From Escherichia phage vB_EcoM-pEB20, in the sequence record OP114733: 64,000 bases of DNA; one strand, written 5' to 3'. The notes beneath the pieces are model-generated. The model was not told where the DNA came from, ran no database searches, and worked only from the letters and a program-made list of their open reading frames with translations. Shown in pieces: positions 1,360 to 63,190 of the stretch (its first letter is position 1; every line of letters starts with the position of its first letter). The position numbers and the translations under genes are program-made.

Positions 1360-2316
1360 ATGATGTTGGTTATTGGTTCTCGTGCACTTCACTATCACGG
1401 TCTTATTGATTCTAGCGCTATTAAAAATAGTGATTGGGACTTTATTGCGGACCAATGTTCTTGGAATGCATTCAAAAATCAAATGATGGGTGTATATGTT
1501 CACCAAGATAACCCTGATGTCCAAGTTTTCAAATGCTTCCATAATGGACGCGAAACTCATTTTGAAGCATATATTGTTCCGGCAATCACTAATGTCCGTG
1601 AATTAGTCGGTGAACTCACTCCTGAAGATTTCACGTCTTCTTATGACCTTTTAAAATACGCCAAGAAAAATTTGACTAAAGACCGTTTGAACGGGTTTTA
1701 CTGGGCAACTCCTGAGATATGTCTTGCAATTAAGATGTCTCATCGTTTCAAGAAAAATAATCCATTCTTTTTAAAGACTATGAACCATATTCAGTATCTT
1801 CGTGGTAAAGGTGTTACACTGGACGATGAACTTACTGAAATTATGCTGAAACGCCAGAAAGAAACCTTGAATTATGCTCACCCAGTTCTTGACACTTCTA
1901 AAAGTGCGTTCTTTAAAGATGACATCTATACATATGACCATGATACTATTCATGAAGCCATTGCACTAACAGACCGTCCAGCGTATACATTTTACATGAA
2001 AGATGGTTCTGAAGTCATGACCTCACGCGAGAAGTTCGAATCATTACCAGAAATGGTCAAATTGGCTGGTGTATACGAAGAATCATGTGTACTAGCGTTA
2101 GAACGTTCTCAGATTCCTAATAACTTTGAAATCCATCCACGTGATAGTTTTATGATGGCTCTTGAAAAGGTCTGTACTTCAATCACATCAGGTTGGTTCC
2201 GTGAATACGCCTGGGAAAACCACAGCAAAGTAGTAAGTATGTACCAAAGCTTAGGACATGACGATTACGTCAAACGTTTCAAACAAAATTTCCATATGGT
2301 AAAACCTTTCAAATAA
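1360..2316 (+). CDS. nucleotidyltransferase-fold protein (GS-x13-DxD motif near N-terminus)
   Basis: IGSRALHYHGLIDSSAIKNSDWDF resembles Pol-beta superfamily hG[GS]x9-13Dh[DE]h motif. Confidence 0.55.
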   Translation: MMLVIGSRALHYHGLIDSSAIKNSDWDFIADQCSWNAFKNQMMGVYVHQDNPDVQVFKCFHNGRETHFEAYIVPAITNVRELVGELTPEDFTSSYDLLKYAKKNLTKDRLNGFYWATPEICLAIKMSHRFKKNNPFFLKTMNHIQYLRGKGVTLDDELTEIMLKRQKETLNYAHPVLDTSKSAFFKDDIYTYDHDTIHEAIALTDRPAYTFYMKDGSEVMTSREKFESLPEMVKLAGVYEESCVLALERSQIPNNFEIHPRDSFMMALEKVCTSITSGWFREYAWENHSKVVSMYQSLGHDDYVKRFKQNFHMVKPFK

Positions 2317-2693: not shown

Positions 2694-3380
2694 ATGAATA
2701 GTTCTAAAGTGTTTAATAGTCAAGCTCGTGCAGTAGGTGGTTTTGCTCATGCGATTAAAAATGACCAGATTAAAAACGAGCCTATGTTCTTTAACTGCGA
2801 TTTGAATTTTGCTTTTGATAATGGCGGCCCAATTACTCGTAGCTTTATCCAAAATCTTCCTGACGATTGGAAAGACTCGGATGTAGTATTTGATTCACGA
2901 GTCCACATGTTGATGCCTGGTTGGTATCCTGCTATCCCAGGTTATCACCATGACGATGTACCACGCCCGGATATTCCGGTTGGTCAACATTTTATTACTG
3001 CAGGACAACCTGACTATGACAACCCTCGTTACCATTCTGAACATATTCTTGGTCTTGTTAACGCTGATGTGTGTCCTACTCATTTTGCAACAGGAACTGC
3101 AGAGTTCAGTCAGATTCCTGATGGCGAACTTATCTATCGCCAGTGGCACAAAGAAGTCCTCGAAAAAATTGAAAAAGGTGAACTAGAGAAATGGGAAGCT
3201 CCAGACCGTACTCTTCTTCAGTTTGATTGGCAAACATGGCACACTGGCTCTCATGCAATTAGTAATGGATGGCGTTGGTTCGGACGTGTATCTCGTAATA
3301 CAGACCGAGTTAAAAAGATTACCAATGAAATTCGTGTCAATGCTCAAGTTTATCTGGAATTCCCTATGGAAGGCTGGTAA
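2694..3380 (+). CDS. hypothetical protein, His-rich (possible metal-dependent enzyme)
   Basis: ORF track; motifs YHHDD, HFATG, WHTGSH. Confidence 0.55.
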   Translation: MNSSKVFNSQARAVGGFAHAIKNDQIKNEPMFFNCDLNFAFDNGGPITRSFIQNLPDDWKDSDVVFDSRVHMLMPGWYPAIPGYHHDDVPRPDIPVGQHFITAGQPDYDNPRYHSEHILGLVNADVCPTHFATGTAEFSQIPDGELIYRQWHKEVLEKIEKGELEKWEAPDRTLLQFDWQTWHTGSHAISNGWRWFGRVSRNTDRVKKITNEIRVNAQVYLEFPMEGW

Positions 3381-8213: not shown

Positions 8214-8437
8214 TGGCTAAATTGATTATAGAAGGGTCTGAAGATGTTTTAAAATGTTTTGCCGCCTGGTTTAGTTGCTCAGGCGAGCAATCATTCACTG
8301 AAGCATTTAGAACGGGTGATATTACTGGAAAATATCCGACAACCGATATCACTGTACGTGGATATGGTATTAATGAGCCTATCCAATTGGTCGAATATGA
8401 CCTTGCCACCGATGAGGAAATTCCTTATGTCGATTGA
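8213..8437 (+). CDS. hypothetical protein
   Basis: ORF track. Confidence 0.5.
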   Translation: MAKLIIEGSEDVLKCFAAWFSCSGEQSFTEAFRTGDITGKYPTTDITVRGYGINEPIQLVEYDLATDEEIPYVD

Positions 8438-8693
8438 AGACATCAAAGGCTACAAGCCGCATACCGATGATAAAATCGGTAAAGTGAACGCTATTAAAGA
8501 TGCAGAAGTCCGTCTTGGATTGTTGTTTGATGCTCTGATTGAAGAAGCATATATCTTGAAAGAAAATGAAACAGAGCAACAAACCAAAGAAGATATGGAT
8601 GCAGTGCAGGCTCTTAAGTATGCTAAGCAACATCTAAAAGAAGCCAGCATGTGGGCGTGTCGTGCAGTATTTCGACCTGAGGAAAAATACTAA
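8427..8693 (+). CDS. hypothetical protein
   Basis: Start at M57 of ORF 8259, GAGGAAA RBS 6 nt upstream. Confidence 0.5.
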   Translation: MSIEDIKGYKPHTDDKIGKVNAIKDAEVRLGLLFDALIEEAYILKENETEQQTKEDMDAVQALKYAKQHLKEASMWACRAVFRPEEKY

Positions 8694-8969: not shown

Positions 8970-9428
8970 ATGACTATCAATTCAGACGTTTTTATCCGCC
9001 GTAATAAACTCCGTCGAATCTTTGAAACGGAGTTCCGCAAAATAAATGCCGGTATAAAAGATGCTGCAAAGTCTCTTGGACTACCAGGCTTTCATATCAA
9101 GTATTCTCAACATCTCTTAGATCGTGCCATCCAGAGAGAAATAGATGAGAATTACGTTTTTGAATTATTTCATAAAGTAAAAAATCACGTTAAAGAAGTT
9201 GCAGAATTTTTGTCAATGCCGGCACGTCCAGATGTTGATGAAGATTTTGTCGAAGGTGTCGAGTATCGTCCAGGCCGTTTAGAAATAACTGACGGAAATC
9301 TTTGGTTAGGACTTACAGTTTGTCGCGAAAATCCGGCATTCAAAATGAAGACTCTTCAATGCAGAATGGCTATTATTAACAGTAAACGACTACCAGGAAA
9401 AGCTTCTAAAGCAGTGATTAAAATCTAG
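8970..9428 (+). CDS. regB: RegB endoribonuclease (cleaves GGAG in early mRNAs)
   Basis: MTINSDVFIRRNKLRR..YSQHLLDRAIQREIDE..RLPGKASKAVIK resembles T4 RegB as recalled; 152 aa; synteny. Confidence 0.7.
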   Translation: MTINSDVFIRRNKLRRIFETEFRKINAGIKDAAKSLGLPGFHIKYSQHLLDRAIQREIDENYVFELFHKVKNHVKEVAEFLSMPARPDVDEDFVEGVEYRPGRLEITDGNLWLGLTVCRENPAFKMKTLQCRMAIINSKRLPGKASKAVIKI

Positions 9429-9979: not shown

Positions 9980-10323
9980 CCAAAATGTTGGCTTTAATAG
10001 TTGGCTTGGTTTCATTTAACGCTCTTGCTAATACTACATATACTGATGTAACGGAGTATACAAACAGAACGGCGTCTGATTATTGCGGTAAAAGTCAAGA
10101 GTGTAAAGTAGATTTTTCACAAAAATTGTTATATGCGTATAAAGACGGAGAAAAAGATGGGGCGTCTAGTAGGTTCAAGGCGTCTACCTTAATTAAAAGA
10201 TACTATAAAAAATGGCAAATATTAGAATGCTCGGTGGCGGAACCTAAAGATAAGGCAGCATGCAATTCTATGGTGGACCGTCTAGTTGACTCTTATAATA
10301 GAGGACTTGCAGCAAGTGATTAA
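9976..10323 (+). CDS. small secreted protein (signal peptide, 4 Cys)
   Basis: MTKMLALIVGLVSFNALA signal peptide; 115 aa. Confidence 0.55.
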   Translation: MTKMLALIVGLVSFNALANTTYTDVTEYTNRTASDYCGKSQECKVDFSQKLLYAYKDGEKDGASSRFKASTLIKRYYKKWQILECSVAEPKDKAACNSMVDRLVDSYNRGLAASD

Positions 10324-10783
10324 AAACTATATCAAGGGCGATATTGTCGCCCTGTTTTCTAAAGGTAATAATATTGCTCACGGGTGTAATTGTTTTCATA
10401 CAATGGGCGCCGGTGTAGCAGGCCAATTAGCAAAGGCTTATCCAAAAATTTTAGAAGCCGATAAACTTCAAACCGAATTCGGAGACGAGTCTAAACTCGG
10501 GACTTATTCGGTTTATGAAAAATATTTTAAGACCCATAAAGCTTATTGCTTTAATCTTTATACACAGTTTGAGCCGGGACCTAATTTTGAGTACTCTGCT
10601 TTAATGAATTGTATAATAGAATTAAATGAATTCGGAAAGAATAAGATAACAAAGCCTGTAATTTATATGCCAAGAATTGGTGCAGGTATTGGTGGTGGAA
10701 ACTGGGATGTCATCGAAGAGATTTTAGATACGTATTCCACTAAACTAGAAATTGTGATTGTTGATTGGGAACCGTTATTATGA
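10286..10783 (+). CDS. macro-domain protein (ADP-ribose binding/processing, Macro_2-like)
   Basis: AHGCNCFHTMGAGVAGQLAKAYP and PRIGAGIGGGNW motifs; start is non-ATG (TTG 10286 or GTG 10316). Confidence 0.65.
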   Translation: MTLIIEDLQQVIKNYIKGDIVALFSKGNNIAHGCNCFHTMGAGVAGQLAKAYPKILEADKLQTEFGDESKLGTYSVYEKYFKTHKAYCFNLYTQFEPGPNFEYSALMNCIIELNEFGKNKITKPVIYMPRIGAGIGGGNWDVIEEILDTYSTKLEIVIVDWEPLL

Positions 10784-12565: not shown

Positions 12566-12616
12566 GTTTACTTCTCCTCAGGTTGTGTTATAGTAGTCCT
12601 TACTTACTAGAGGAGA
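12566..12616 (+). promoter_or_regulatory. early promoter in inverted repeat (PeSL-like)
   Basis: GTTTAC 12566-12571; arms TCTCCTC/GAGGAGA. Confidence 0.5.
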
Positions 12617-12621
12617 ACGTT

Positions 12622-12801
12622 ATGACACGTAAAGAAAAGATTTCTAAGTTAATGTTTTTGATTGAAGAGTACGCTAATGCGGTATCTGATTGGGAAAATG
12701 CCCATGGTTGCGAAGATGGAGACATCGACATTAACAGAGCTATGAAAAAGATGGCCGAAGCCCACACCGAATTGCAAATGTATGTTAACGAGATTATGTG
12801 A
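12622..12801 (+). CDS. hypothetical protein
   Basis: M24 of ORF 12553 (upstream part of ORF lies in promoter). Confidence 0.5.
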   Translation: MTRKEKISKLMFLIEEYANAVSDWENAHGCEDGDIDINRAMKKMAEAHTELQMYVNEIM

Positions 12802-13015: not shown

Positions 13016-13052
13016 TTTACATGCTAATAGGACTATGATATAGTAGTCCTAT
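13015..13052 (+). promoter_or_regulatory. early promoter in inverted repeat (PeSL-like)
   Basis: GTTTAC 13015-13020; AGGACTA/TAGTCCT arms. Confidence 0.5.
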
Positions 13053-13072
13053 CAAATCAATTGGAGAACAAA

Positions 13073-17719: not shown

Positions 17720-17781
17720 ACGCTTTACCCAAGGACGGGTTATAATGGTTCTGAGTTCCAATTCAATCTGAGGAAATAGTT

Positions 17782-18777: not shown

Positions 18778-18832
18778 TGTACAACCAAGGAAGGTTGGAG
18801 TATAATAAATTTTTCAACATGAGGAATATAAA

Positions 18833-19768
18833 ATGGCTTCTATTACACGTAGAGAACTTATCAAAGAATTTACCTCGAACGCATATACCCCAGGACCTAA
18901 TCCTATCCGTATGCCTGTAAAGACTCCTGAAGAGATTGAGGAAATCTGTTCATATTATGGGATTAATTCTCGTAAGTTTACTCAATTTGAATGCGTTACT
19001 AACACACCCGTTAAAGAGTTCATTAAAAATGGTGAGTTCAGCCGTTTATTAGCCAAACAGAAACTTCGTAATTTTTGTATCGGCGGTTACGGACAATATT
19101 TCGCTAAGCAGTTCCGGAATAACCTTAACAATCTGATGGCCATTGCTTCTCGTATTCGTCCTCAAGCAATTAACATGAAACATTTGAAATATACTTACGA
19201 TAAGTTGGAAATCATGGTTATCAGTGAGAATGAGTTCACTCTCACGTATAAACCTAAGAATGATAACGTTGCTCGTGTATTCCACCAAGCGTTGGAAGTG
19301 TTAGGTGATAATATTCACCAGATTAAAGCAATTTATTCTCGTGAGCTTAATATTATCAACCCTATCAAGAATAAGGGCCATATCGCTATCCAGGCTCGTG
19401 TATCTATTGGTAAAAAGGTTCCTGCGCCATGGTGGCACAAAGACTCTGAATACTATCAAAATCTTAAAAAGGAAAATGCAACGTTCGAAGCGTCAATTAC
19501 TGCAACACCAATTGGCCATGCTGAAGTTCTAGGTGCATATTCTACTGCTCCATCTATACACATTTCACCGTCGACTAAACTGGAAATCTCTAACGGTCTT
19601 CTTCCTGCCGAAGATTACCATTATAATCAAATCAAGGCCACTGTAGACCAACTATCCGTTGAACTTGACAAAGCACAAGCTAAGCTTCGTGATGCTCAAC
19701 AAGTAGTTACCAAGCTCCAGTTGCAGTACTCTAAACTTTTTAACGCAATGAATGCGTTAAAATCATAA
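18833..19768 (+). CDS. hypothetical protein with C-terminal coiled coil
   Basis: ORF track; own promoter. Confidence 0.55.
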   Translation: MASITRRELIKEFTSNAYTPGPNPIRMPVKTPEEIEEICSYYGINSRKFTQFECVTNTPVKEFIKNGEFSRLLAKQKLRNFCIGGYGQYFAKQFRNNLNNLMAIASRIRPQAINMKHLKYTYDKLEIMVISENEFTLTYKPKNDNVARVFHQALEVLGDNIHQIKAIYSRELNIINPIKNKGHIAIQARVSIGKKVPAPWWHKDSEYYQNLKKENATFEASITATPIGHAEVLGAYSTAPSIHISPSTKLEISNGLLPAEDYHYNQIKATVDQLSVELDKAQAKLRDAQQVVTKLQLQYSKLFNAMNALKS

Positions 19769-19772
19769 ATCA

Positions 19773-19802
19773 GTTTACAACCAAGGATGGTTGGAGTATA
19801 AT
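19773..19802 (+). promoter_or_regulatory. early promoter with spacer hairpin CAACCA-AGGA-TGGTTG
   Basis: GTTTAC 19773-19778; 6-bp stem in spacer; TATAAT 19797-19802. Confidence 0.55.
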
Positions 19803-19830: not shown

Positions 19831-20781
19831 ATGACACGTTCACATTACATTGAATACTTTGCAGGTCTTATCGCTAACGTTCATGCCCAACGTGCTTCTG
19901 GTGCACTAGGATTTGATGTTCCACACCGAGATGTAGTAAGTGGTATTCTTCGCGATTTTGGTACATACACAGGCCAAGAAAATCATATCTGTAAAGATAC
20001 TCAGAATGCGTATTCTCATTCATTAGGGACGCTGCTTCAATGGTTCAAACGTTCTCGTTTATTATCTTCTACTGTAGCTCGCGATAACATTAAAAACTTT
20101 ATGAAACCGAGCTTTATTAAATCTGTGACATCTAAAACTGATTTGGTTGAATTCACTATTGTTAATGATGTTAAAAAGACTCATTTGGCTGATTGGTTAT
20201 CTACCATTCCTGAAACTAAATTTGCTGATAAATTTGCTTGTGAATTCAATAAACAAGTGAATATGCTTTTTAAACATTCTCGTAAATTATTCACTGGCGG
20301 TGATGGCCGTACAAATAAAGTTCATGTTAAAGATTGGGTTACTGCAGTATTCAAACCAACTGGTAATGGTAACGCATCATTATCAATTGATATCCAGGTT
20401 CCTTATTACTACTCACGTAATCTCGGTACCATGAAAGCCGAAGAAATTAATAAGCACAACAAAACTATTCGTTCGTTGTCTTATAAACTTATTACATTGT
20501 TAGAGACTATGGATGTTGTTGAAACGTTCGACGAATCCGAAGATAACGGTTCAATGTTATATAGTTCTCGTACCCGAATTAAGTTGAAGAACCCTAACGA
20601 GTATAAACTTAAGACTATTAAAGAACCTAAAGTAGAAAAGGTTGATATCATGGCTGAAGAACGTGAATATCTCAAATCTCGTCTGAAAGAAGTCGAAGCC
20701 CAGATTGCAGAACAAACTAAATCGTTAAAAGCTCTGAATGCGAAAGCGGATGGTTTACGAAATGCCATTGAGGTGTTATAA
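19831..20781 (+). CDS. hypothetical protein with C-terminal coiled coil
   Basis: ORF track. Confidence 0.55.
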   Translation: MTRSHYIEYFAGLIANVHAQRASGALGFDVPHRDVVSGILRDFGTYTGQENHICKDTQNAYSHSLGTLLQWFKRSRLLSSTVARDNIKNFMKPSFIKSVTSKTDLVEFTIVNDVKKTHLADWLSTIPETKFADKFACEFNKQVNMLFKHSRKLFTGGDGRTNKVHVKDWVTAVFKPTGNGNASLSIDIQVPYYYSRNLGTMKAEEINKHNKTIRSLSYKLITLLETMDVVETFDESEDNGSMLYSSRTRIKLKNPNEYKLKTIKEPKVEKVDIMAEEREYLKSRLKEVEAQIAEQTKSLKALNAKADGLRNAIEVL

Positions 20782-49896: not shown

Positions 49897-49945
49897 GTTT
49901 ACTTCTCCAGTAGTTGTGTTATTATAGACCTATCAACTACTGGAG
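49897..49945 (+). promoter_or_regulatory. early promoter in 12-bp perfect inverted repeat (PeSL-like)
   Basis: GTTTAC 49897-49902; arms CTCCAGTAGTTG 49905-49916 and CAACTACTGGAG 49934-49945. Confidence 0.6.
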
Positions 49946-49951
49946 AACAAA

Positions 49952-50269
49952 ATGAAAACCATCGATTGTAAAGCAGAATTTAAGATTTTTTATCACGGTT
50001 CAAGTAGTTCAGCTAACATCGAAAACATGCTTTGTCCTCCTGAAGAAACAGGAGTTCTGTCTGAAACTGGACGTAAGAAAAACTTGGATCGTGTATTCTT
50101 TACTGAAGATATCGGTTTAGCAAAGATTTATGCAGGACGAGCAGCCCGCTCTTATGGAGGTGAACCACGTCTCTATCGAGTAATTTCTCCGGTAGATGTA
50201 GTTCAAATGAATGATACTAAAGGCGCTACAGTTTATCACGCTGAATGGGCCTTCTGTGAGGAAATATGA
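49952..50269 (+). CDS. hypothetical protein
   Basis: ORF track. Confidence 0.55.
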   Translation: MKTIDCKAEFKIFYHGSSSSANIENMLCPPEETGVLSETGRKKNLDRVFFTEDIGLAKIYAGRAARSYGGEPRLYRVISPVDVVQMNDTKGATVYHAEWAFCEEI

Positions 50270-61096: not shown

Positions 61097-61126
61097 GTTT
61101 ACAACCAAGGATGGTTGGAGTATAAT
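61097..61126 (+). promoter_or_regulatory. early promoter with spacer hairpin CAACCA-AGGA-TGGTTG
   Basis: GTTTAC 61097-61102; stem 61102-61107/61112-61117; TATAAT 61121-61126. Confidence 0.55.
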
Positions 61127-61157: not shown

Positions 61158-61652
61158 ATGAATATCAATACCATGGCCACTTACATCCTGAAAGACGAAA
61201 AACAAATCAACTGGTACAGTGCTTCAGTGCGAGCTTATGAAAAGTTTTGTGAAATTTTAGGTGCCACTCAAGGTAATAGTTTCACTATTGTTAACTTCAT
61301 CAAACAAGCTGAAGGCCCTTGGTTATTCTTAGAAATTAAAAATTCATACGGTACAATTTCTACTACCGCCCTTCCAAGCACCGACTTTGAACTGTTGATT
61401 GAAGAAGTAGAACCCGTTAAAGACCTCTGTATTGATATGGATATCGCTTGTATGTACGGTACTCTGATTAAGCCTATTGAGCCTACTGATTTGTTGTGTA
61501 AAGCTGTTTCAATTCGACGTCCGTTCGCAGGTCCAGTGAGTGGATGGGTAACTGATCAGTGGATTGAAGATGGTGTTGAACTTCTGAACGTTGTTCACGC
61601 AGGTGATTTTAGTGTAGTTCCACGTAGTGCTGTAGTTAATATCCTTAATTAA
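61158..61652 (+). CDS. paralog family B member 1 (C-terminal DQW[IV]EDG motif)
   Basis: C-terminus ...GWVTDQWIEDGVELLNVVHAGDFSVV. Confidence 0.55.
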   Translation: MNINTMATYILKDEKQINWYSASVRAYEKFCEILGATQGNSFTIVNFIKQAEGPWLFLEIKNSYGTISTTALPSTDFELLIEEVEPVKDLCIDMDIACMYGTLIKPIEPTDLLCKAVSIRRPFAGPVSGWVTDQWIEDGVELLNVVHAGDFSVVPRSAVVNILN

Positions 61653-61712
61653 TGTTGTACATCCAAGGATGGATGGAGTATAATGAATTCAACTTAAACA
61701 AAGAGAGAAATT

Positions 61713-62177
61713 ATGATTACTATTGGTGAAATTAAACGTGTATCGACAGTGTCTCGTTCTAAAGCTGCAGGAAAGCTGGTTGAAGTAGTAGGACTTCGTA
61801 CTAATGGCATGGGCCGTATTAAAGAAGTTAAAGTTCGAATCATTCCTAGTTCTGGAAAAACTGAAACTCAGTTCGCCTATGTAAGTCCTAAATTCTTGGA
61901 AACTCCTGTGAGCGCTCATTTTGCTTCAAGCGATATCGTTGAGCCTACTACACAGTTCAAATGGGCCTTGTGTAAAGGTGTTGAATTCCAGACTGATAAA
62001 GAATTTGACTTCATCGATGAATACGGTTATCCAAGCAAAACTGATACTATGTGTGGCTTCATTAGTGACCAATGGGTAGAAGATGGTAAAAAGCTATACA
62101 ATATTGTATTCTTAGGTGACTTCCGAGTTGTTGAAGAATCTGAAATCACTCGCTATGTGTCTCCTCGTAAAGCTTAA
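61713..62177 (+). CDS. paralog family B member 2
   Basis: ...GFISDQWVEDGKKLYNIVFLGDFRVV; homologous over full length to next ORF. Confidence 0.6.
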   Translation: MITIGEIKRVSTVSRSKAAGKLVEVVGLRTNGMGRIKEVKVRIIPSSGKTETQFAYVSPKFLETPVSAHFASSDIVEPTTQFKWALCKGVEFQTDKEFDFIDEYGYPSKTDTMCGFISDQWVEDGKKLYNIVFLGDFRVVEESEITRYVSPRKA

Positions 62178-62186
62178 GGAATTATT

Positions 62187-62606
62187 ATGAATATTGCAAA
62201 TCTCTCTATTGGTGATTATGTACATGTATCGGATGCTTCTCGCTCTAAAGTTGCTGGGAAGTTGGTTGAAGTTCTTTCTGTGAGTGATCCGGTTTTTGGA
62301 CGTAACGAAGTTAAAGTTCGTGACGCCGATGGTAACATTGGTTACGTTAAAAGCCAGTTCATTGAGCCAGAAGAACGTACGTTCAAATGGAAACTGTGCA
62401 GGTCTGTTTTAGTTGTAAAAGACCATGAATTTACTATTGCTGCTGCAACTGACGGGTCTCCATGGACAACGAATCAAGTTGCTGGTTTTATTTCGGACCA
62501 ATGGGTAGAAGATGGTGTTAAGCTTTATAACATCGTTTTCGCTGGACAGTTCATGGTAGTTCCTGAGTTCCAAATCAAAAAATATTGTCCAGCATCTTTT
62601 GCATAA
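62187..62606 (+). CDS. paralog family B member 3
   Basis: ...GFISDQWVEDGVKLYNIVFAGQFMVV. Confidence 0.6.
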   Translation: MNIANLSIGDYVHVSDASRSKVAGKLVEVLSVSDPVFGRNEVKVRDADGNIGYVKSQFIEPEERTFKWKLCRSVLVVKDHEFTIAAATDGSPWTTNQVAGFISDQWVEDGVKLYNIVFAGQFMVVPEFQIKKYCPASFA

Positions 62607-62610
62607 AGTT

Positions 62611-62660
62611 GTTTACTTCTCCTCTGGTTTTGATATTATAACCGTATCAACCAGAGGAGA
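62611..62660 (+). promoter_or_regulatory. early promoter in 12-bp perfect inverted repeat (PeSL-like)
   Basis: GTTTAC 62611-62616; arms TCTCCTCTGGTT and AACCAGAGGAGA. Confidence 0.6.
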
Positions 62661-62665
62661 ATAAT

Positions 62666-63190
62666 ATGTTAGTTTACCGCGTAGAACGTAGTTTTTGTAC
62701 TCAACGTGAATCATTACCCGGAATTGCTATCGAAGACGGTAAAGCCGTCAGAATTTGGGAAACCTCTTGGAATAAAGAACCTCGCTCGCCATACGGTTGG
62801 TCGGGCACCGACAACTCTGAAGAAACATGGGAGTTCCTTGATAAGCATGGAATACTCTCAGGTAACTTCTACCATCACGGCGACAACTATAATGTCCCTA
62901 ATCGTCCTACAGTAAATGAAGACAAACTCCTTGAACAAAATATCTTAAGATACTATAGAATTGAGCACACATTTGAATTGAACGAAGATTGGGCTCAAGG
63001 GTTCTATTTTGGATTTGAAAGTGTTGATGCGGTTTATGCATGGTTTGACGACCAGGTGGATGTTGAACTCTTGAAAGCTAAAGGATACTATATCGCGGTC
63101 TATGAAGCACCTGATTTCATCCTCGGAAGTTGTCAATTAATGTTTAGACGTTCATTGGCAGAACAAGTTGATTTTATTTTGCTAAAATGA
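62666..63190 (+). CDS. hypothetical protein
   Basis: ORF track. Confidence 0.55.
   Translation: MLVYRVERSFCTQRESLPGIAIEDGKAVRIWETSWNKEPRSPYGWSGTDNSEETWEFLDKHGILSGNFYHHGDNYNVPNRPTVNEDKLLEQNILRYYRIEHTFELNEDWAQGFYFGFESVDAVYAWFDDQVDVELLKAKGYYIAVYEAPDFILGSCQLMFRRSLAEQVDFILLK

Follow-up and report, generated by a model that had tools for sequence, protein, structure and literature searches.

Four sites in the genome of an RB69-type phage are probably sigma-70-type early promoters built as compact composite cassettes of the PeSL type, which serve as joints of modular gene shuffling. PeSLs, the promoter-early stem-loop cassettes of T4-type phages, are known from phi1/RB49 (Arbiol et al. 2010, PMC2839356) and from PST/T4 and nt-1/KVP40 (Comeau et al. 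2014, PMC4122927). These two papers attribute promoter and attenuator activity to them and describe modular shuffling through recombination between neighbouring copies, which was demonstrated experimentally. Promoters that carry a stem-loop in the spacer are therefore not new in themselves; they are already a published class (PMC2839356). The cassettes considered here run from the stop codon of the upstream gene through T[T/G]TACA, a hairpin of 5-6 bp closed by AGGA, GAG and TATAAT into a leader of 26-31 nt with a Shine-Dalgarno sequence and the start codon. Host RNA polymerase would use them to start early transcription of the downstream non-essential gene. As head-to-tail repeats of about 30 bp lying a few hundred bp apart, they let recombination or replication slippage remove (or, in reverse, insert) exactly the intervening gene, and a single promoter, chimeric and intact, is left after the exchange, as the comparison of related genomes shows. 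The most likely role of the hairpin itself, a candidate role, would lie on read-through RNA from the upstream gene, either in processing or in protection of the 3' end.

We analyzed a stretch of 64,000 nucleotides from Escherichia phage vB_EcoM-pEB20 (record OP114733), referred to below as the window. With a nucleotide identity of about 97% to the Mosigvirus phages MM02, APCEc01 and moha, the window is by its sequence a member of the RB69 group of T4-like phages. The genes around the four sites can be named after their relatives. Three large proteins, which the first-pass annotation had described as coiled-coil proteins, are nrdC.6-, nrdC.5- and nrdC.3-like following the RB69 annotation. The array of paralogs sharing the DQWVEDG motif consists of a motB.1-like gene, motB and a further MotB-like gene, all three of which match the Pfam family motB. 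Coordinates of the cassettes and the relevant genes are collected in the table.

Table. Promoter cassettes, their collapsed relative and neighbouring or related genes in the window.
Feature	Position	Strand	Elements	Context
Copy 1	18778..18806	+	-35 TGTACA 18778-18783; CAACCA 18782-18787; AGGA 18788-18791; AGGTTG 18792-18797; GAG 18798-18800; TATAAT 18801-18806	Upstream of nrdC.5-like gene; RB69 orthologue Pe:52042
Copy 2	19774..19802	+	-35 TTTACA 19774-19779; CAACCA 19778-19783; AGGA 19784-19787; TGGTTG 19788-19793; GAG; TATAAT 19797-19802	Upstream of nrdC.3-like gene; RB69 orthologue Pe:51019
Copy 3	61098..61126	+	-35 TTTACA 61098-61103; CAACCA 61102-61107; AGGA 61108-61111; TGGTTG 61112-61117; GAG; TATAAT 61121-61126	Site named in the first-pass annotation; upstream of motB.1-like gene; RB69 orthologue Pe:8947
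Copy 4	61656..61684	+	-35 TGTACA 61656-61661; CATCCA 61660-61665; AGGA 61666-61669; TGGATG 61670-61675; GAG; TATAAT 61679-61684	Upstream of motB; RB69 orthologue Pe:8387
Collapsed fifth relative	17723..17746	+	CTTTACCCAAGGACGGGTTATAAT; stem ACCC/GGGT around AAGGAC	Upstream of nrdC.6-like gene
nrdC.6-like gene	17782	+		Third large nrdC.x gene; only the collapsed motif relative upstream
nrdC.5-like gene	18833..19768	+	311 aa, DUF7235	Enclosed by copies 1 and 2 (distance 996 bp)
nrdC.3-like gene	19831..20781	+	316 aa	Downstream of copy 2
motB.1-like gene	61158..61652	+	164 aa, MotB-type C-terminus	Enclosed by copies 3 and 4 (distance 558 bp)
motB	61713..62177	+	154 aa, Pfam PF17613	Downstream of copy 4
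Third MotB paralog	62187			Third member of the MotB array
regB endoribonuclease gene	8970..9428	+	Pfam REGB_T4, E = 6e-69	

The pattern CA[A/T]CCA-AGGA-[T/A]GG[T/A]TG-GAG-TATAAT occurs four times in the window, always on the + strand. A search with CAACCAAGGATGGTTGGAGTATAAT that tolerated up to three mismatches returned exactly these four + strand sites, at 18782 (one mismatch), 19778 (none), 61102 (none) and 61660 (two), and 100 dinucleotide-preserving shuffles of the window gave no match. A chance origin of the four-copy family is thereby ruled out, with four found and none expected from the shuffles. Copies 2 and 3 have TTTACA as the -35 element and copies 1 and 4 have TGTACA; the spacer of 17 nt and the perfect TATAAT are common to all four. 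The inverted repeat begins with the last two bases of the -35 element and takes up most of the spacer. The 6-bp hairpin that had been proposed in the spacers at 61097 and 19773 is found at both copies with zero mismatches. Of the two 5-bp stems proposed for the remaining copies, the one at 18782 holds, where CAACCA/AGGTTG has an A.A closing mismatch. At 61660 all 6 bp are present (CATCCA/TGGATG): relative to copies 2 and 3, an A to T change in one arm is compensated by T to A in the other. In RB69 the stem is perfect at the site orthologous to copy 1.

The layout around the copies is compact. The stop codon of the upstream gene ends 0-6 nt before the -35 element, so that the cassette takes up the whole intergenic gap, and the -10 element precedes the ATG by 26-31 nt of leader carrying the Shine-Dalgarno sequence and start codon. 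DNA similarity among the copies is confined to about 45 bp and ends at the cassette edges; the longest identical runs between paired copies measure 14 and 11 bp. The association with particular genes, as proposed in the first-pass annotation, is correct in part. Promoters of this kind precede two of the three large proteins, nrdC.5-like and nrdC.3-like, and the first two MotB paralogs. The nrdC.6-like gene has only the collapsed relative, and at the third paralog of the array a promoter of its own is absent. The collapsed relative is probably not a normal sigma-70 promoter, because its spacer measures merely 11 nt.

Several lines of evidence bear on the promoter status of the four copies. They match the sigma-70 consensus at 10-11 of 12 positions and belong to the top-ranked sites of both regions. 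The 20 nt upstream of the -35 element are 70-85% A+T, a modest enrichment over the 63% of the window as a whole, and A-tracts are present in copies 2 and 3. The RB69 orthologues of all four copies appear in an HMM-based list of early promoters (Nolan et al. 2006, PMC1524935), a paper that makes no mention of a spacer hairpin. In a MAFFT alignment copy 4 lines up with the early promoter that precedes motB in T4 and JS10, over the -35 element, the upstream AATTAAT context and the -10 element. For the T4 promoter, a figure legend in Durand et al. (2006, PMC1702504) refers to primer-extension stops. The top sigma-70 matches, the RB69 predictions and the orthology of copy 4 thus agree with the earlier proposal of a promoter subclass. 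We consider it well supported that the four sites are early promoters of one subclass in an RB69-group phage, their activity being judged from consensus and orthology.

Beyond the four copies, embedded inverted repeats are the rule among the early-type promoters of the window. The pair ATAGGACTA...TAGTCCTAT spans the -10 element at 2330 and 13016, and weaker versions occur at 1035, 17137 and 51210. At 12567, 49898 and 62612 the spacer could base-pair along 8-14 bp with the Shine-Dalgarno sequence that follows, and two of these three sites exceed all 300 shuffles. Since such repeats are the rule here, the four hairpin copies are one subfamily within a general PeSL-like organization of the window.

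As isolated structures the hairpins are unremarkable. RNA folding of 46-nt contexts gave energies between -6.2 and -9.4 kcal/mol (z from about -1 to -1.6), the clean 6-bp hairpin reaching -6.9 kcal/mol, and bare-DNA hairpins came to -3.5 to -5.5 kcal/mol. No thermodynamically outstanding RNA structure was found, with z only about -1 in the 46-nt context. Similarly, a single perfect 6-bp inverted repeat was equalled in 135-158 of 300 shuffles of the 80-nt promoter region. A lone inverted repeat is therefore insignificant, and the significance of the motif stems from its repetition, conservation and covariation. A conserved mini-ORF starting from an ATG that overlaps the loop and the 3' arm was also considered and discarded: frame and length differ between copies, and copy 1 is without the ATG.

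Conservation in related phages, a lack of which had been named beforehand as refuting the proposal, is extensive. The 30-mer matches about 215 phage records, 143 of them at 99% identity or more, and is exact in about 140 Mosigvirus records. Mosigvirus genomes carry 2-4 copies each, and Dhakavirus (the JS10 group) has one diverged copy. Stem variants came from scans of viral and metagenome contigs, in which the pattern left the stem free, and from orthologous sites in the GenBank records of RB69, JS10, T4 and phiD1. Around AGGA the stem reads CAACCA/TGGTTG, CATCCA/TGGATG, CTTCCA/TGGAGG (with one G.U) or CAGCCA/TGGTTG, a G.U intermediate, and at Mosigvirus nrdC.6 it reads ACCC/GGGT. T4 has AGCCA-AGGA-TGGCT upstream of nrdC.3, a site with an intact hairpin between promoter boxes reduced to TTTAAA and TATAAA, and CCACA-AGGA-TGTGG inside the spacer of the GTTTACT...TATAAT promoter of nrdC.4. 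JS10 has TACCA-AGGA-TGGTA fused to the -10 element at nrdC.6, the same site as that of the collapsed relative in Mosigvirus.

In a loop-anchored alignment of 12 distinct sequences, 88.9% of the cells were paired compared with 65.9% in shuffles (reached in 0 of 500), and both sides changed in four of the six stem pairs. The covariation score was 0.538 against 0.109, and it dropped to 0.126 or less when the partner was slid by 1-3 columns. To control for selection bias, loci were classed as T4-like through BLAST to the window and not through pairing. The five inner pairs are kept in 27 of 27 instances from T4-like contigs; in unrelated contigs, where hits arise by chance, most cluster around 2-3 pairs. 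The loop-closing pair, on the other hand, is frequently broken (A.C or A.A). Wobble pairs point to both strands: G.U pairs fall on the sense strand in two variants, and the A.C mismatches next to the loop would read as G.U in the antisense orientation. The covariation of the stem around an invariant AGGA loop in three genera argues that the hairpin itself is selected. It shows the predicted hairpin to be under selection for pairing and for loop sequence across Mosigvirus, Dhakavirus and T4. The invariant loop further suggests sequence-specific recognition in a single-stranded form. Since transcription begins downstream of the hairpin, the only RNA expected to contain it is read-through RNA of the upstream gene.

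The second property of the cassettes, their behaviour as joints, can be read from close relatives. For this we built in silico the junctions expected from recombination between tandem copies and then searched for them. A junction that joins the end of nrdC.6, the motif and the start of nrdC.3 exists as one contiguous 295-bp match in 21 phage records, with 99.3% identity in AV110 and 96.3-96.9% in p000v and others. The interior of nrdC.5 is present in 132 records and its flanks in 153, so that the 132 records and the 21 with the junction add up to the 153. The corresponding junction of the dexA end, the motif and the motB start was found in one piece in PTE-Eco05, AV114, AV116, JM17, JK42 and JK45. 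Here the motB.1-like gene is complete in 147 records and absent with a precise chimeric junction in at least six, which again accounts for 153. Metagenome contigs (L156 and L143) contain the two kinds of junction as well. In alignments the chimeric cassettes take their left flank and -35 element from the upstream copy and their leader from the downstream copy. In AV114 a copy-3-type stem joins a copy-4-type leader, so that the switch falls within TGGAGTATAAT, a run of 11 bp. The events may be deletions of the gene between two copies or, in reverse, insertions; either direction is compatible with the junctions. What matters for these indels is the repeat and not necessarily the hairpin: short direct repeats suffice, and the indels consequently speak for the repeat and not for the hairpin.

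The spacer palindrome had been read in the first-pass annotation as a possible shared regulator binding site, that is, as an operator for a dimeric phage or host protein that co-regulates these genes. An inverted repeat with a 4-bp centre in the spacer of four promoters has the appearance of such a site, and the products of two downstream genes are DNA-binding proteins of the MotB family. However, the half-sites vary with compensation across sites and genera (CAACC/GGTTG, CATCC/GGATG, CTTCC/GGAGG, AGCC/GGCT, CCACA/TGTGG, TACCA/TGGTA) while the asymmetric AGGA centre is invariant, a pattern that fits a hairpin and not a dimer operator because the arms covary around a constant asymmetric loop. 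The register of the stem relative to the -10 element also differs at T4 nrdC.4 and JS10 nrdC.6, and MotB is described as a tight but non-specific DNA binder (PMC7827196). We regard an operator as most improbable. The other earlier proposal, that promoter-gene units were duplicated, would make the copies leftovers of tandem duplications and the hairpin an inherited passenger. In its favour, copies 3 and 4 are each followed by a MotB-family paralog and a third paralog comes next, and duplication is possible for these paralogs only. For the nrdC copies it fails because the nrdC.6-, nrdC.5- and nrdC.3-like proteins have no detectable similarity (E > 0.4). With no similarity detected between the proteins and DNA similarity that stops at the edges of the cassette after about 45 bp, a recent duplication of promoter-gene blocks is rejected there. 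Moreover, one motif sits at two loci 42 kb apart, and a passenger would not give compensatory changes and an invariant loop over three genera, so that duplication as a general account is very unlikely. The function proposed for PeSL stem-loops, termination or attenuation of transcription arriving from upstream, has experimental precedent in phi1, where the effect of a PeSL stem-loop in lowering lacZ expression was close to that of a strong terminator (PMC2839356), and the hairpins here stand directly after the upstream stop codon. Yet the stem is short, at 5-6 bp of which three are G-C, and weak, at about -6 to -7 kcal/mol, the tail GAGUAUAAU has no U-tract, and an invariant loop sequence is unexpected for a terminator. 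A terminator scan of both regions flagged none of the four hairpins. On these sequence criteria, weak stem, missing U-tract and no flag in the scan, we rejected an intrinsic (rho-independent) terminator; the hairpin is unlikely to act as a classical terminator because it is weak and without a U-tract, and as an explanation of the cassettes this function seems quite doubtful.

A further reading concerns the endoribonuclease RegB and gives the cassette a dual use. The DNA would be a promoter, and on read-through RNA the hairpin with GG^AG-UAUAAU would be a candidate RegB/S1 site, whose cleavage would leave the upstream message with a 3' hairpin and separate it from the downstream cistron. The window encodes regB, and RegB cuts GGAG/U in early intergenic regions, with strong sites of the form GGAGRAYARAA (PMC3014915). 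The minimal T4 motB substrate of RegB is GGAGUAUAAAA (PMC1702504), with which the motif GGAGUAUAAU is identical at nine of the first ten positions. The T4 nrdC.3 site carries GGAGUAUAAAU (GGAG-UAUAAAU), retaining GGAG despite its degraded promoter hexamers. GGAG occurs in the spacer of only these four promoters, and in their own leaders in 0 of 4, compared with 11 of 16 other promoters. In the loop GGA is unpaired and the fourth base belongs to the loop-closing pair, an arrangement similar to the one needed for S1-free cleavage (PMC3014915). On the other side, the resemblance to a RegB site is mostly forced by the -10 consensus. The A-rich 3' context of RegB sites calls for A at positions 6, 8, 10 and 11, a pyrimidine at 7 and any base except C at 9. 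Positions 6-9 of the motif fit it, but position 10 is U, rare (3 of 26) among the well-cut sites, and position 11 is A only in copy 1. MAFFT pairs the -10 element of the motif with the -10 element of T4 motB and not with the T4 RegB site, which lies in about 17 extra nt absent from the RB69 group; a direct orthology of GGAG-TATAAT to that site finds no support in this alignment. RegB is furthermore inhibited by secondary structure and most GGAU sites are resistant (PMC3014915; PMC1702504). The T4 nrdC.4 hairpin promoter is without GGAG, and the loop-closing variants yield GGAC or GGAA, which are poor RegB substrates. The dual use is a tentative possibility, rather unlikely on this evidence. 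About as doubtful is its extended form, in which the cassette is read twice, as a DNA promoter and as an RNA RegB/S1 signal that insulates gene cassettes with the upstream message capped by a 3' hairpin, and in which the last base of the -10 element toggles between TATAAT (promoter-optimal, as in the RB69 group) and TATAAA (RegB-optimal, as at T4 nrdC.3 and RB69 motB). If true, it would explain why decayed promoter hexamers can still be accompanied by the hairpin and GGAG, and why the loop is invariant over three genera.

Taking the four sites as PeSL-type cassettes, the probable reading, extends the PeSL concept to the RB69 group and lends weight to the view of short, repeated promoter cassettes as joints for the gain and loss of accessory genes in T4-type phages. 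The 153 relatives amount to a natural experiment in which each has either a gene flanked by two cassettes or the exact one-cassette junction. For phage engineering, the cassettes mark natural and tolerated points of deletion or insertion. Selection on the embedded hairpin is an aspect that goes beyond what the published PeSL papers tested and points to a role at the RNA level, possibly RegB processing.

The comparison with known systems helps to place these elements. With the early promoters of T4 and RB69, defined by the consensus GTTTAC...TATAAT and an A-rich UP-like region, they agree in the -35 and -10 elements, the upstream A-tract and a CTATC-type initial region. Promoters of the hairpin subclass lack a TG extension and have their boxes 17 nt apart; 16-nt spacing with TGT before the -10 element is seen at several others in the window. 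In T4 stem-loops such as that of gene e, the ribosome-binding site is hidden on read-through transcripts and an internal promoter gives translatable mRNA (PMC3014915). The promoter within a hairpin, and the structural difference between promoter-initiated and read-through RNA, are shared with this type, and the sites at 12567, 49898 and 62612 fit it closely. In contrast, the stem of the four hairpin copies stays clear of the downstream Shine-Dalgarno sequence, and the known T4 cases use late promoters. With the T4 RegB/S1 sites (GGAGRAYARAA and the motB site; PMC1702504) they share GGAG followed by UAUAA, an early intergenic location and a phage that encodes regB. They differ from those sites in the U at position 10 and the usual lack of A at position 11, and they sit upstream of their own start, hence on read-through RNA only; as RegB sites they are candidates drawn from sequence.

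The closest relatives are the PeSLs. Neither of the two papers treats RB69-type Mosigvirus, the group from which the present cassettes come (PMC2839356; PMC4122927). The stems here are short, of mixed composition and closed by an invariant AGGA tetraloop, in contrast to the G-tract/C-tract stems (GGGG...CCCC) of RB49/phi1 PeSLs, and there are four copies per genome, plus one collapsed, compared with dozens in RB49. Terminator-like features that belong to the PeSL definition are absent, and its terminator half probably does not apply to these cassettes. Mini-circles excised when neighbouring copies recombine are a further trait of the PeSL class. The stem-loops of T4/PST PeSLs are placed just upstream of the promoter in PMC4122927, whereas here and at T4 nrdC.4 and nrdC.3 they lie in the spacer; in phi1/RB49 they are most often found between the -35 and -10 elements or overlapping the -10 element (PMC2839356). 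Common to both are an early promoter of sigma-70 type, whose spacer is 17 nt long and whose upstream region is A/T-rich, and a stem-loop within or overlapping it, which here extends from the last two -35 bases into the spacer. In both, the space from the stop codon of one gene to the Shine-Dalgarno sequence and start codon of the next is taken up by the cassette. Both are repeated in variable regions before genes that are non-essential or of unknown function, here the nrdC.x and motB clusters, and their copies mark the boundaries of indels between close relatives, here in 21 and 6 of 153 genomes.

Alongside the early promoters that carry a hairpin in the spacer, the window holds a second class of early promoter in which the spacer is complementary to a site further downstream. 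Its spacers (TTCTCCTC..., TTCTCCAGTAGTTG and TTCTCCTCTGGTT) are the exact complement, over 8-14 bp, of the downstream Shine-Dalgarno region (...GAGGAGAA), and at two of these promoters the pairing scored above 300 of 300 shuffles. On read-through RNA the ribosome-binding site would be hidden, and on RNA started at the promoter itself it would be exposed. A third class is defined by a 9-bp inverted repeat, ATAGGACTA...TAGTCCTAT, with the -10 box inside its span.

Promoter sites and regB-adjacent genes (window coordinates unless a locus is named)
Feature	Position	Strand	Remark
Spacer complementary to Shine-Dalgarno region	12567-12640, 49898-49970, 62612-62690	+	early promoters
Same class, weaker members	49464, 56578	+	
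Inverted repeat across -10 box	2330-2375, 13016-13060	+	third class
Same class, weaker members	1035, 17137, 51210	+	
Collapsed relative of the hairpin motif	17723-17746	+	upstream of nrdC.6-like gene
Hairpin motif, -10 = TATAAA	T4 GT7 (L118) 2239-2275		upstream of nrdC.3
Hairpin motif, -10 = TATAAA	RB69 (L002) about 3345-3375	-	motB copy
Acb2/Tad1-hairpin-domain protein	8259-8693	+	adjoins regB; Pfam PF24729, E = 1.4e-17
Macro-domain protein	10286-10783	+	adjoins regB

Variants of the spacer-hairpin motif itself were also found. In the collapsed relative only 11 nt separate TTTACC from TATAAT, and it may be a degraded promoter-early stem-loop (PeSL) cassette or an extended -10 promoter; at the equivalent site JS10 has TACCA-AGGA-TGGTA fused to TGGTATAAT. 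Where the -10 has turned into TATAAA, both sites read GAGTATAAATC, which matches the T4 late-promoter consensus TATAAATA at 7 of 8 positions and lies nearer than the TATAAT form to the optimum of the endoribonuclease RegB. From their family names, the two proteins encoded beside regB suggest anti-defence or ADP-ribose-related accessory roles.

Comparison of 61158-63190 with T4 and JS10 revealed that gene order in the motB cluster varies by genus, running dexA, motB.1-like, motB, MotB-like, motB.2-like in the window and dexA, motB.2, motB.1, motB in both others. The motB.1-like gene is a single ORF of 164 aa here versus two (132 + 29 aa) in RB69. By megablast its interior (61200-61600, +) matches 383 phage records, Tequatrovirus and Yersinia phages among them, but the match spans the whole length in only 147; several genera may therefore have a portion of this cassette gene in common.

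The second promoter class follows the same logic as T4 genes e and 49, although the cases in the window use early promoters instead. The third corresponds to the PeSL subclass 'overlapping the -10'; the motB promoters of T4 and JS10 share its layout but differ in their stems (GGGACC/GGTCCC and GAGAGCC/GGCTCTT, respectively).
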